5,062 bases of DNA from a virus (IMGVR_UViG_3300012974_000295); one strand, 5' to 3'; positions 2,015 to 4,694 are shown, counted from the first letter of the stretch. The notes: a model not told the origin generated them from the sequence alone. Made by a program: numbers and translations.

Positions 2015-2377
2015 TTAATGACCTGCTGCGCGGAGTTTTCCGTCAGGTTCACCGGCAAGAGTCAGTAATTGTCCCTGGTCTTCCTGCAGAATAGTCAGGC
2101 GACCACCGCGATTGACATACATCGGCGTTTCGGTGGTGTCTTCTTCGGAAATTTTCCCGCGGTTAGTCGGGCGAACATATGAGAGTTTGTGTTTGATTTT
2201 CACACGGTTCTCATCAAATGGTTCGATTTCCAGGTTGAGTGAGACCTTACCTTTGGTTTTCGTGTTCATCACACCTGAAGCGACTTCACTGAGAACTGCG
2301 CCGATTTTGGTTTCAAATACGCCGCCGTCCAGCTCCCCGATAAATGCCTGCACATCAGTACTGCGTTCGCTAGCCAT
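2015..2377 (-). CDS. yfdP: YfdP-like phage protein, 120 aa; first gene of the leftward early operon
   Basis: The track ORF extends to 2563, but the 62-codon N-terminal extension is Cys/His/Arg/Pro-rich and coincides with the leader hairpins. The internal ATG at 2377 (MASERSTDVQ...) has GAGGAG 7 nt upstream and gives 120 aa, matching my recollection of K-12 YfdP. TAA stop at 2017-2015. Confidence 0.65.
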   Translation of the reverse strand: MASERSTDVQAFIGELDGGVFETKIGAVLSEVASGVMNTKTKGKVSLNLEIEPFDENRVKIKHKLSYVRPTNRGKISEEDTTETPMYVNRGGRLTILQEDQGQLLTLAGEPDGKLRAAGH

Positions 2378-2425
2378 TTTGCTGCTCCTCATCATATCGA
2401 CCCTGCAAGGTCGGTTGGTTTCTCC

Positions 2426-2514
2426 ACAAAACAGAGAAGAACACCTGCGGTGGCAGCCGCCCGGATGGATTGGGTTATGAGCCCGTCGTCCGGTGATGCT
2501 CTTCTCTGTTTTGT
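2426..2514 (-). repeat. Long inverted repeat (15 bp perfect, 16/17 extended) enclosing a 55-nt GC-rich core; predicted compound RNA hairpin in the yfdP 5' leader
   Basis: 2426-2442 ACAAAACAGAGAAGAAC is the reverse complement of 2498-2514 GCTCTTCTCTGTTTTGT with one mismatch. The core contains nested small inverted repeats (GCGG/CCGC 2447-2460, GGG/CCC 2472-2484, CCGG/CCGG 2461-2493). The element ends 49 nt upstream of the yfdP ATG. Confidence 0.5.
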
Positions 2515-2560
2515 AAAAAGAGCGGTACCAGCCGGAAGCAAGTGTACAAACTGGTACCGC
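2515..2560 (-). terminator. Candidate intrinsic terminator within the early-left leader (minus strand)
   Basis: Perfect 10-bp stem GCGGTACCAG / CTGGTACCGC (2522-2531 and 2551-2560, 7/10 GC) followed on the minus strand by UCUUUUU (2521-2515). The 19-nt loop is larger than typical. There is no U-tract on the plus strand, so any activity is minus-strand specific. Confidence 0.4.
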
Positions 2561-2985
2561 CAAAGCAGTGGCTGTTGTGGTGACCGGTGCTGATCTCCGG
2601 CTTGCGGTTATTTCAGACTCTCACGGGTGTTTAATTGCCCCGCCGAACAGCTCTTTTCCGCAATAGCTGCAATGTCTTTCGCGCATCAGCCTGCGCATTC
2701 ACCACAACGTTGAGAGCACTTAGCCAGTTACGGCACCACACTTTGTCGCGGTTCCATAAATGCCCTCATCGTTGCACCCTGGTCTCTTCCCAGGTGTCAA
2801 ACCGAACCGCCACGCTGGTTAGGCGTCTTATCAGCATCATCATTGACTTGCACATTCCGGCTACCTGGTTTGTTTGCCCGAGCAAGGAGTGGATTGTCCC
2901 CTTTAACGTCCCCAGACCGCTAACGACGCATGTGCCATACGCCGTGTTACAACCAAATTTTGTTAGTACCTTGTTTGTTGGTCTG
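2561..2985 (-). ncRNA. Candidate structured noncoding leader or ncRNA transcribed from the pL-like promoter (no N-like ORF present)
   Basis: Every minus-strand frame is broken by stops every 10-60 codons. The only long ORFs (2635-3003 plus, 2766-3044 minus) are Arg/Cys/His/Thr-rich and not protein-like. By hand count the region is about 55% GC against roughly 30-40% for the adjacent repressor gene. Several local inverted repeats are present (e.g. GGTCTGG 2980-2986 with CCAGACC 2912-2918). Boundaries are approximate. Confidence 0.3.
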
Positions 2986-2991
2986 GAAAGA

Positions 2992-3020
2992 AAGATAAAA
3001 TGAAGTTGCGCATTATGCAA
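2992..3020 (-). promoter_or_regulatory. pL-like early-left promoter (candidate)
   Basis: On the minus strand, TTGCAT (3020-3015, inside an operator site) is followed by a 17-nt spacer and TATCTT (2997-2992). Predicted start is near 2985, reading toward yfdP. Confidence 0.4.
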
Positions 3021-3044
3021 GTGTTTTTGTTGCGAGATATGCAA
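3006..3044. promoter_or_regulatory. OL-like operator pair: two 15-bp imperfect palindromes
   Basis: TTGCGCATTATGCAA (3006-3020) and TTGCGAGATATGCAA (3030-3044) have centres 24 bp apart. They share the TTGCG...GCAA pattern with the sites between the cI-like and cro-like genes. Confidence 0.5.
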
Positions 3045-3050
3045 TTTGAT

Positions 3051-3079
3051 GGGTAATGAAAAGCCACCTTCGGGTGGCT
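3051..3079 (-). terminator. Intrinsic terminator downstream of the repressor gene (minus strand)
   Basis: 7-bp stem AGCCACC / GGTGGCT (3062-3068 and 3073-3079) with a 4-nt loop, followed on the minus strand by UUUUCAUU. It lies about 20 nt beyond the repressor stop codon. The plus-strand tail is not U-rich. Confidence 0.55.
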
Positions 3080-3099
3080 AATTGATGAGGAGGTAAGGG

Positions 3100-3792
3100 T
3101 TAATTGTGTCGCTTAAGGGTTTGTGACTGGCTGATTAAGACCTTTCCAAAGACCATAAACCGGTGTTCATTTTCGCTGGTAATTCCCCATTCACGGTAAA
3201 TCTGGTTATCAGAAATCACCAGTAGTTTGTCAGGTATCATTTGCAGTCGTTTGACATAAATTTTATCATCAAAACCAAATACATAGATACCATCTCCATC
3301 AAACTGATTGATACTGACATCAACGAAGATGAGATCTCCTGGCTCAATGGTTGGACACATACTGTCCCCACGAACGTTGATTACTTTAATGTGATTTGCT
3401 GGCCGTCCGCCAAACATCGATACAGCATTATCAGTTCTGTATTCAATGGCATGAATCACATCAATGACATCACCGCCCTGGATAAGGCCATTTCCCGCAC
3501 TGGCACTGATATCCAGCATTTCAATACGGAATACATCCTTCACCTGCGCAACATCCTCACTAATACTGTTTTTACATACAGTATTACTTTTGAAGTCTGA
3601 GGTAAAGAGATCAGCAATATCAACACCTAAGCTCCTGGCAATATTACTCAGGGCTTGTTCAGTGAATTGTTTCTGCTTACCTGTTTCCAGGCGCGAGATA
3701 TTTGCCGCATCCACTCCTATTGCTTCAGCGAGATCGGCGATTTTCATGTTCTTCGCTTGGCGAAGTTGTCTGACTCGATTTCCTATGTTCAT
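3100..3792 (-). CDS. cI-like prophage repressor: N-terminal XRE-type HTH plus C-terminal LexA-like S24 peptidase autocleavage domain (230 aa)
   Basis: N-terminus RVRQLRQAKNMKIADLAEAIGVDAANISRLETGK is a classic HTH. The C-terminal domain has the Ser-Lys dyad context (VRGDSMCPTIEPGDLIFVD and YVKRL) and a candidate Ala-Gly cleavage site (SASAGNG). It is divergent from the cro-like gene. There is no SD upstream of the ATG at 3792. Confidence 0.85.
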   Translation of the reverse strand: MNIGNRVRQLRQAKNMKIADLAEAIGVDAANISRLETGKQKQFTEQALSNIARSLGVDIADLFTSDFKSNTVCKNSISEDVAQVKDVFRIEMLDISASAGNGLIQGGDVIDVIHAIEYRTDNAVSMFGGRPANHIKVINVRGDSMCPTIEPGDLIFVDVSINQFDGDGIYVFGFDDKIYVKRLQMIPDKLLVISDNQIYREWGITSENEHRFMVFGKVLISQSQTLKRHN

Positions 3793-3889: not shown

Positions 3890-4150
3890 ATGCAATCACC
3901 ATTACGGAATGTGCGTAAAGCGCACGGATTTACTTTGCAGCATGTTGCTGCTGGCGTTCAGGTCAATCCAGCGACGCTGAGTCGTATTGAAAGACTGGAA
4001 CAAATTCCATCTATCGAGCTTGCAGAACGTCTGGCCAATTTTTTTAAGGGTGAAATCAGCGAAATGCAGATTCTTTATCCGGCACGTTTTCAATCTAGCC
4101 AAAACCAGAATGGGTTTAAACCACAGGAACAGGAGATAAGCCGTGGGTAA
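3890..4150 (+). CDS. Cro-like HTH regulator (86 aa)
   Basis: Small ORF divergent from the repressor gene, with an HTH segment (TLQHVAAGVQVNPATLSRIERLEQ) and GGAGG upstream. Its TAA stop at 4148-4150 overlaps the GTG start of the next gene by 8 nt. Confidence 0.8.
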   Translation: MQSPLRNVRKAHGFTLQHVAAGVQVNPATLSRIERLEQIPSIELAERLANFFKGEISEMQILYPARFQSSQNQNGFKPQEQEISRG

Positions 4151-4694
4151 GCATCACTGGAAAGTGGAAAAACAGCCTGAGTGGTACGTGAAAGCTGTCA
4201 GAAAAACTATCGCGGCGTTGCCGGGGGGTTACGCTGAAGCTGCTGAGTGGCTGGATGTAACAGAGAACGCTTTATTCAACCGCCTTCGTGCAGATGGCGA
4301 TCAGATTTTCCCGCTGGGATGGGCAATGATTTTACAGCGCGCTGCTGGCACTCACTACATTGCGGATGCTGTCGCACAGTCTGCTGGTGGGGTGTTTGTA
4401 TCGCTTCCTGAAATTGAGGAAGTAGAGAACGCCGATATAAACCAGCGCCTGCTGGAAGTCATCGAACAAATCGGGAGTTACTCAAAGCAGATTCGTTCGG
4501 CAATCGAAGATGGGGTAGTGGAGCCACACGAGCAGACAGCAATTAATGATGAGTTGTATCTGTCAATTTCGAAGCTCCAGGAGCATGCGGCACTGGTCTA
4601 CAAAATTTTCTGCGCTCCAGAAAAGAGTGACGCCCGCGAGTGTGCAGCTCCGGGCGTCGTGGCGTTTTGTGTCTGTGGAGAAACTAACGCATGA
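4143..4694 (+). CDS. cII-position regulatory protein (183 aa); possibly a CII-like/CP76- or YdaT-like regulator
   Basis: GTG start at 4143 with AGGAG (4131-4135) 7 nt upstream, translationally coupled to the cro-like gene. Protein-like composition with a possible HTH around AEWLDVTENALFNRLRADG. Function is inferred mainly from gene position; family assignment is unverified. Confidence 0.55.
   Translation: MGKHHWKVEKQPEWYVKAVRKTIAALPGGYAEAAEWLDVTENALFNRLRADGDQIFPLGWAMILQRAAGTHYIADAVAQSAGGVFVSLPEIEEVENADINQRLLEVIEQIGSYSKQIRSAIEDGVVEPHEQTAINDELYLSISKLQEHAALVYKIFCAPEKSDARECAAPGVVAFCVCGETNA
4619..4658 (-). terminator. Candidate minus-strand intrinsic terminator inside the 3' end of the cII-position gene (oop-like antisense RNA terminator)
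   Basis: Perfect 8-bp GC-rich stem GACGCCCG / CGGGCGTC (4629-4636 and 4651-4658), with an extra GAG/CTC pairing inside the loop. On the minus strand it is followed by ACUCUUUUCU (4628-4619). On the plus strand a U-run starts only 6 nt after the stem. Confidence 0.35.

Follow-up and report, generated by a model that had tools for sequence, protein, structure and literature searches.

What lies between the early-left promoter and the first early-left gene of a lambdoid prophage that lacks an N gene? The question is raised by positions 2378-2990 of the 5,062-nt viral DNA stretch IMGVR_UViG_3300012974_000295 (the window), which covers the immunity genes and the early-left part of a lambdoid prophage of the mEp460/PhiR63_1 type. 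Over 2300-3100 it was 99.9% identical to Escherichia phage PhiR63_1 and 98.5% identical to mEp460. The sequence-only reading of this DNA had described, at the map position of lambda nutL and N, a gene-free, structured interval richer in G+C than its flanks, and had proposed RNA antitermination as in HK022 put, a non-coding RNA (ncRNA) released from the early-left transcript, or a long regulatory 5' untranslated region (5' UTR). Analyses of open reading frames (ORFs), G+C content and folding bore out that description. The interval is non-coding, and on balance it probably serves as the untranslated leader of the early-left transcript in an N-less lambdoid prophage and consists of an array of ncRNA cassettes that yields stable RNAs, with a terminator gating entry into the early-left genes.

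The G+C content was 0.525-0.56 across 2301-2900, compared with 0.375-0.45 in the repressor gene and 0.36-0.49 in yfdP and yfdQ. The fold of the whole leader on the transcribed strand had a z score of -4.26 against shuffles. BLAST comparison with loci around yfdP homologues and with phage records showed that the leader is a mosaic and not a single unit. On the minus strand, to which the RNA features below belong, the order within 2378-2990 is module M1, module M2, a terminator, module M3 and then the yfdP ribosome-binding site.

M2 and the terminator correspond to sRNA-17

M2 (2709-2573) consists of a closing stem (2708-2699 with 2583-2574), hairpin A (2696-2681), a variable insert and hairpin B (2601-2583), and the two hairpin loops pair with each other (GCUGA 2690-2686 with UCAGC 2593-2589). 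In the family, the closing stem UGUGGUG/CACCACA is often extended (7-10 bp), hairpin A reads GCGCA-GGCUGA-UGCGC, the insert measures 13-150 nt, and hairpin B reads GCCGG-AGAUCAGCA-CCGGC. The predicted shape is like that of a transfer RNA (tRNA), with an acceptor-like stem and two arms whose loops interact. A covariance model (R2) built on 25 short members and run on loci not chosen for M2 recovered 24 M2 copies, and the window copy scored 74.4 bits. Among independently sampled copies, 97.6% of the cells were paired, 10 pairs had changed on both sides, and none of 500 shuffles was as good. Two of these 10 changes sit in the loop-loop helix GCUGA/UCAGC, which is absent from the model. Invariant G-U pairs place M2 on the minus strand.

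M2 is followed by a tL-like intrinsic terminator at 2560-2515 (stem 2560-2551 with 2530-2521, U-tract 2519-2515), with the sequence GCGGUACCAG...CUGGUACCGC and then UCUUUUU. This is the terminator-like hairpin that had been noticed earlier. Its folding energy was -21.2 kcal/mol (z -4.33), with 13 pairs in the minimum free energy fold and a 10-bp perfect inverted repeat as its core, and it is conserved upstream of M3 in other genera. It has the G+C-rich stem and U-tract of an intrinsic terminator, and the 3' end of a homologous RNA, determined by rapid amplification of cDNA ends (RACE), falls at 2516.

That RNA is small RNA (sRNA)-17 of Escherichia coli K1 strain RS218, which was mapped as 193 nt by 5'/3' RACE, was visible on Northern blots, and lies in an mEp460-like prophage upstream of yfdP (PMC7719688). 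The published "full length" primers match window positions 2516-2547 (plus strand) and 2709-2677 (minus strand), the supplementary alignment agrees, and the length fits 2708-2516. sRNA-17 thus begins at the first base of the covariation-supported M2 closing stem, ends on the fourth U in the tail of the terminator, and consists of M2 plus the terminator. The proposal of an ncRNA made from the early-left transcript is supported by this published RNA.

sRNA-17 was reported to have "no homolog in Rfam" (Front Microbiol 2020;11:574833, PMC7719688). Our search with Rfam 15 likewise gave nothing over the window at E ≤ 1. At E ≤ 10, only chance-level matches were obtained on the leader, among them rydB positions 30-47 with M2 hairpin B. 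The earlier remark that the region is not a known RNA family was therefore right as far as Rfam goes, but it overlooked the sRNA-17 paper. Hairpin B (GCCGGAGAUCAGCACCGG; window 2584-2601, minus strand, and L037:1282-1299 in phage HK633) matches the rydB model at those positions (GCCGGAGAUAAGCGCCGG), and by this likeness RydB, a chromosomal sRNA, may have descended from an M2-type element of which it is a remnant.

The exact 24-nt core of M2 was found in at least 120 IMG/VR loci. The segment 2721-2573 recurs downstream of tRNA-Thr in P1-like plasmids, and a 42-nt core is about 92% identical in T1-like and Vi01-like Klebsiella phages, in HK633, and in Cronobacter and Edwardsiella phages. M2 pointed in the same direction as the next gene in 65 of 76 contexts. 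Of 92 distinct contexts, 37 had a terminator-like site no more than 150 nt downstream of M2, compared with 10 of 237 background windows, and in several phages M2 starts a few bases past a -10 element. The terminator enrichment and the proximity to -10 elements indicate that M2 behaves as a unit ending at a terminator. A tRNA gene was near M2 in 9 of 120 copies, which is about the background level, yet it was always co-oriented. About 35% of copies (29 of 83) had NCCA after the M2 stem, where about 5% would be expected. That M2 ends in CCA like a tRNA was considered and not relied on, since the feature is not universal, is missing from the window copy, and is part of a longer helix in one subfamily. 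Copies with the 24-nt core also occurred in five G+C-rich contigs that do not look enterobacterial (L067, L084, L086, L095 and L138), in one of them right after a tRNA 3' end; judged from contig appearance, the core may be conserved well beyond Enterobacterales.

M1 is a conserved pseudoknotted RNA

M1 occupies about 2946-2711. It contains a local hairpin H1 (2944-2924), a long-range helix H2 around a variable hairpin (2916-2913 with 2867-2864), an invariant block GGUAGCCGGAAUGUGCAAG (2865-2847), hairpin H3 (2826-2823 with 2815-2812), a pseudoknot (2820-2817 with 2803-2800) in which CACC/GGUG changes to AACC/GGUU, and a terminal hairpin H4 (2794-2790 with 2782-2778). A closing helix of GAGGGCAUU (2767-2759) with AGUGCUCUC (2720-2712) was recognized by eye and stands outside the pair counts. 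The five proposed helices were scored on a MAFFT alignment of 33 diverse copies, which had 56 invariant columns. The data showed that 97.6% of the cells were paired and that 10 pairs had changed on both sides; none of 500 shuffles was as good, slid controls were 28-52% paired, and the invariant G-U pairs fit the minus strand only. An alternative long-range pairing given by RNAalifold, GGCACAU/AUGUGC, was set aside; both of its sides are invariant, and the local hairpin is the one with covariation.

The exact cores searched measured 19 and 24 nt, and that of M1 was likewise found in at least 120 IMG/VR loci. A tRNA gene lay within 500 nt of 41 of 124 copies, on the same strand every time, and M1 was co-oriented with downstream genes in 54 of 79 cases. 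The segment 2958-2781 recurs in P1, P7, D6, RCS47 and SJ46 just after a tRNA gene and before ban; in P1 and P7 this places M1 2.4 kb from the promoter. M1 is also present in the epsilon15-like phages phiV10, TL-2011b and SPN1S, with an offset match that covers 2945-2702 in phiV10 and less in SPN1S.

By eye, the closing helix encloses a variable cargo, which in relatives can be a true tRNA or a T-arm-bearing element, and the same junction motif leads into M2 in some cases and into a true tRNA in others. ARAGORN called an unannotated tRNA-Arg(tct) right after the M1 junction motif in phiV10 (L038:1742-1818), with a coding sequence annotated on the opposite strand from the next bases on, and an unannotated tRNA-Ser(tga) right after an M2-like element in P7 (L039:1866-1952). 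At L308:950-975, the M2 closing stem stands after the junction motif as a bare hairpin, CGUUGUG-GCAG-CACAACG, which looks like an empty cassette slot.

Sequence GUGCUCUCAAC at 2719-2709 resembles boxA and may be one, yet it forms the 3' strand of the helix with GAGGGCAUU, and the boxA-like AGUGCUCUY is one strand of a conserved helix. In some relatives, a perfect UGCUCUUUAACAA follows M1. In L226, L178 and L190, a hairpin comes after M1 and then either a perfect boxA of the rrn type (UGCUCUUUAACAAUC) or a lambda-like GCUCUUUAAAAA, and a boxA directly after M1 suggests Nus-factor antitermination in those phages. A recurrent block, CAGCCAUUCACG..UAAGCAUC...GGGACUGGAAGAGUUACCACUUGGAGACGGUCC..AAAUGUCCUGGACAGUGGCGG, follows M1 in L020, L057, L099, L181 and L233 and could be yet another RNA module belonging to these arrays.

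M3 lies next to the translation start of yfdP

M3 (2514-2426) is a long hairpin with a 22-bp stem, formed by arms 2426-2450 and 2490-2514, and a three-way apex that contains GGG-CUCAUAA-CCC. Its folding energy was -47.8 kcal/mol (z -6.96). The inverted repeat seen earlier and put at 15/17 bp is this stem, which proved longer. Many Enterobacterales genera conserve the segment 2564-2412 right before yfdP, and the M3 stem was kept through compensatory changes among 14 copies from at least eight named genera; one pair, for example, is CG in nine copies, GC in four and UA in one. At the apex (2488-2472), 16 of 17 bases match the anticodon arm of E. coli initiator tRNA-fMet, with a 14-nt exact match. 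This comparison was made post hoc; its score was reached by none of 300 shuffles.

Downstream of M3 are a small hairpin (2415-2396), a GAGGAG ribosome-binding site (2390-2385) and the yfdP AUG (2377-2375). The small hairpin is kept in other genera with one compensatory change. Judged from the position of the M3 stem beside the ribosome-binding site, the third earlier proposal, a regulated long 5' UTR, is plausible for this part of the leader.

The interval is non-coding

ORFs of 122, 92, 49, 47 and 36 amino acids (aa) are present in the interval, counting both strands, and none matched Pfam. Two of them matched phrog_3651 and phrog_33599, families without an assigned function, on opposite strands of the same M3/terminator DNA; matches on both strands fit families made from wrongly called ORFs. 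The matching stretches are 2450-2593 on the plus strand and 2392-2541 on the minus strand. The mEp460 annotation places gp36 and gp37 on the plus strand over M1-M3, and ORFs of this kind are annotated in cdtI too. Both these gene calls and the two PHROG families look as if they had been built on structured non-coding DNA. The 36-aa arginine-rich ORF (minus strand, 2741-2631) covers the boundary between M1 and M2 together with the M2 variable insert, and neither Pfam nor the frames of homologues revealed a conserved ORF for an N-like arginine-rich protein just downstream of pL.

About one third of the homologues from other genera carry stops or frameshifts in the reading frames and still keep the RNA stems. 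The lengths of homologues and modules differ by non-multiples of three, and substitutions track the stems in M1, M2 and M3. The earlier claim that there is no credible ORF was thus correct in substance. The comparison suggested with it, of compensatory against codon-like change in homologues, gave compensatory changes in all three modules.

Putative pL, neighboring genes and distribution

The candidate pL has a -35 element TTGCAT (3020-3015) and a -10 element TATCTT (2997-2992) with a spacing of 17, and would start transcription leftward near 2984; operator-like 16-bp direct repeats lie at 3005-3020 and 3029-3044. A consensus promoter scan of the window did not call this site, and we infer it from the sequence pattern and from the parallel in L165. 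This independent prophage with a similar repressor has TTGCGT-17-TATCTT at the same place and, with other early-left genes, the same layout of pL, M1, M2 and terminator without an N-like ORF.

Between the putative start and M1 lies a 5' transcript linker, AGACCAAC...GGUUGUAAC (2947-2984), within which homology with P1 and P7 starts at 2958. M1 begins about 38 nt past the presumed start here and 7-8 nt past the -10 element in other phages and prophages; the linker is therefore not a constant part of M1. Promoter-like sites were modestly enriched upstream of M1 (7 of 69, against a background of 3.4%).

The minus-strand genes downstream of the leader are yfdP (2015-2377; start at 2377, 120 aa, phrog_204), yfdQ (1125-1949), yfdR (461-1024) and yfdS (120-470). 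On the other side are a cI-type repressor gene (3100-3792, minus strand, ending at 3100), cro (3890-4150, plus strand) and a cII/YmfL-like gene (4143-4694, plus strand). When 2300-3100 was used as the query, 3022 of 5426 complete E. coli genomes had a partial match, and 808 matched at least 80% of it. In E. coli K-12, only yfdP and about 20 upstream bases remain.

Expression of the leader

We envisage the leader as working in the following way. Leftward transcription would come from pL after induction and, in lysogens, probably from read-through from the repressor gene. It would copy M1 and then M2, and would mostly end at the terminator. M2 with the terminator would accumulate as the stable 193-nt sRNA-17, whose 5' end is presumably cut by a processing enzyme at the foot of the M2 stem. 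The terminator would have a double role, making the 3' end of sRNA-17 and gating transcription into yfdP, yfdQ, yfdR, yfdS and beyond, to int. Read-through transcripts would carry M3 as a 5'-UTR element of yfdP, most likely one for processing or translation control of the yfdP mRNA. Between the repressor gene end and the operators there is an intrinsic-terminator-like hairpin (3062-3079, minus strand; AGCCACCCGAAGGUGGCU followed by UUUC), read-through of which could supply leader transcription in lysogens.

The published data on RS218 bear on this reading. A quantitative reverse transcription PCR amplicon corresponding to window 2958-2570 was detected in the lysogen (PMC7719688), so an RNA spanning M1 and M2 exists there. 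RNA sequencing gave 0.49 reads for yfdP in the wild type and 47 in the sRNA-17 mutant (PMC7719688). The wild-type value indicates that little transcription passes the terminator in the lysogen, and the presence of sRNA-17 on Northern blots at the same time is in line with terminator gating.

Several points weigh against the terminator-gated leader. The transcript evidence comes from the RS218 lysogen, which is neither this strain nor induced cells. The mutant retains a chloramphenicol cassette (PMC7719688), so the rise of yfdP from 0.49 to 47 is confounded and uninterpretable. The authors placed the sRNA-17 promoter in a fragment that bound ArcA at 20-80 μM protein (PMC7719688); this fragment is window 2709-2958, that is, M1, and their view of it as an ArcA-controlled promoter differs from ours. 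Inspection of the sequence immediately upstream of 2708, by eye only, found no sigma-70 promoter. The fold of M1 is thermodynamically ordinary (z -1.0), so the support for M1 is comparative. Finally, an efficient terminator leaves the expression of yfdP to int after induction unexplained without an antiterminator, which leaves room for M1 or another factor.

SsrA-like tag modules in relatives

In relatives, the M1 slot holds a different module with an SsrA-like tag frame, and M2 lies downstream of it. The tag module was found in at least 120 IMG/VR viral contigs, for example at L037:940-1140 (HK633), L036:~960-1150, L039:~830-1000 (P7), L308:960-1160 and L303:2760-2950. All 124 copies examined read GCA AAC GA... 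and had exactly 10 codons and a stop. The peptides formed 15 conservative variants, such as ANDDLMMVAA, ANEEMYLAVA and ANDEQFLAVA, and synonymous codon changes were present. When the tag module alone was used to fetch loci, M2 was present in 34 of 62, in each case 175-1008 nt downstream and on the same strand. By eye, the stop codon of the tag sits in a hairpin loop, as it does in transfer-messenger RNA (tmRNA). At the corresponding position the window reads GCA AGU CAA UGA UGA UGC UGA UAA GAC GCC UAA and has no tag.

This linkage makes a tmRNA- or tRNA-like trans function of the family a serious possibility. Tentatively, M1 and M2 could belong to a large, undescribed, modular group of phage RNAs whose fuller versions pair the tag AN[DE][DEN]xx[LM]x[AV]A plus stop with M2 as a non-canonical tmRNA analogue that tags, rescues or diverts stalled ribosomes, the window copy being a tag-less derivative expressed from the immunity region. 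The group ranges over the P1 family and lambdoid, epsilon15-like, T1-like and Vi01-like phages and, with hosts judged from contig appearance, beyond Enterobacterales. If the tag linkage is functional, phages would encode a means of manipulating ribosome rescue, which would be of wide interest.

For the window itself, we regard it as rather unlikely that M1 and M2 form a tag-less phage tmRNA- or tRNA-like system in which M2 is handled by tRNA or tmRNA enzymes and acts in trans on translation or ribosome rescue. Such a system would account for the 7-10 bp closing stem of M2, for its two arms with pairing loops, for an insert where tmRNA has its mRNA-like part, for the NCCA after the stem in about 35% of copies, and for the constant tag frame and its position relative to M2 in relatives. 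However, ARAGORN found no tRNA or tmRNA gene in the window, and neither 221 IMG/VR loci nor six annotated loci gave a tmRNA call, tag-bearing relatives included; the Rfam matches to tmRNA at the HK633 tag module were weak, and the window itself had none. ARAGORN detected no cloverleaf, the M3 apex copies the anticodon arm of tRNA-fMet only, and M2 lacks both a canonical T-loop and the G3-U70 alanine identity pair. In one subfamily, the CCA lies within an extended helix. Nor is the known tmRNA topology one in which a tag module stands 5' of a self-contained tRNA-like domain. Literature text searches found no paper with the core sequences or tag peptides.

The leader is not a put element

The put RNAs consist of two stem-loops of about 70 nt in total, with the consensus GAACGGC...GUCGG...GGCGGG..CAGGA..CGGCAAU, and promote terminator read-through in cis that is blocked by mutations in the beta' zinc-binding domain. 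A covariance model (R1) was built from eight putL/putR sequences of HK022, UPF_BP1, phiEt88, CobraSix, S9-5, HK639 and PdC23 and was run with filters off on the window and nine loci. HK022 putL scored 96.6 bits and putR 55.7 bits. The leader gave no match; its best score was 6.2 bits (E 9), at 2623-2643. The first hairpin of M1 shares ACGGCG and CAUGCGUCG with putL stem I, and homology by way of these strings was rejected by R1. The leader is not a member of the put family, and the first earlier proposal is not supported in that form.

A put-like function of M1 without homology is a separate matter, made less likely by the other contexts of M1 and by the lysogen data. We consider it unlikely that M1, by itself or together with M2, acts in cis on RNA polymerase coming from pL and modifies it for processive read-through of 2560-2515 and later terminators. 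Its location is as for put, just past the candidate pL and ahead of a terminator that stands before the early-left genes; no N-like ORF is present; the core is as invariant as expected of an RNA that binds a conserved machine; and the strings common to M1 and putL stem I may be counted in its favor. N-less relatives have also been suggested to use put-like RNA (PMC12315714). On the other hand, M1 of P1 and P7 stands 2.4 kb from a promoter, the best R1 score falls at a different place, and the perfect boxA after M1 in some phages suggests that antitermination there is by Nus factors. In the RS218 lysogen the M1-M2 amplicon was detected yet yfdP was almost silent at about 0.5 reads, which argues against strong constitutive read-through.

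Decay and small proteins

It is very unlikely that the interval is a functionless, decayed remnant of a tRNA/ncRNA array kept by recent common descent. The mosaic pieces common to P1, epsilon15-like and T1-like phages, the tRNA-fMet-like fragment in M3 and the run of stop codons where relatives have a tag would fit decay, but all three modules show compensatory changes among distant phages and genera, exact 19-24 nt cores of M1 and M2 are each kept in at least 120 viral contigs, and the literature describes an expressed RNA whose mutant has a phenotype (PMC7719688).

That the interval encodes small proteins (the 122-aa and 47-aa plus-strand ORFs of mEp460 or the 36-aa arginine-rich minus-strand ORF) was rejected as most improbable, since the annotations in mEp460 and cdtI and the two PHROG matches are outweighed by the empty Pfam search, the opposite strands of those matches, the frames interrupted in about one third of homologues, the 13-150 nt inserts and non-triplet indels inside modules, and substitutions that follow the stems.

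Comparison with known systems

N is missing from many lambdoid prophages of E. coli, Shigella and Salmonella, whose early-left reading has been guessed to be "put-like" (PMC12315714). Here, this gap is filled by defined, conserved RNA structures, put homology is excluded, and the gap is tied to sRNA-17, which has been reported to affect survival of E. coli K1 in blood (PMC7719688). The M1 and M2 families are common in viral contigs yet outside Rfam, as is M3. sRNA-17 was already known; the structural families, their breadth and the link to tag modules appear to be undescribed.

The leader resembles the lambda nutL/N leader in its map position, in being a long untranslated leader, and in having a long stem (M3) by the ribosome-binding site of the first gene. 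In contrast to lambda, the N gene is lacking, and the boxA-like UGCUCUC is a strand of a conserved helix. The lambda leader has an RNase III site, and the likeness of M3 to it is one of stem position.

The likeness to HK022 put lies in an N-less lambdoid phage with a structured RNA just past pL and ahead of a terminator, and in short strings common to the first hairpin. However, M1 measures about 235 nt and has a pseudoknot, whereas put has two stem-loops in about 70 nt, and M1 is also found far from promoters and beside tRNA genes.

The resemblance to tmRNA and to phage tRNA clusters lies in the enrichment of M1 next to co-oriented tRNA genes and in the 10-codon SsrA-like frames upstream of M2 in relatives. 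The difference is that the tag module of those relatives lies 5' of the tRNA-like part and not inside it.

sRNA-17, also among the closest known systems, coincides with the leader in both sequence and position, the 193-nt RNA defined by RACE being minus-strand window 2708-2516. The published account treats it as a stand-alone, ArcA-controlled sRNA with its promoter in the 250 bp upstream, whereas here that region is the structured RNA M1. In our analysis, sRNA-17 belongs to a large tRNA-shaped family that many types of phage carry, and its terminator lies within the early-left leader.

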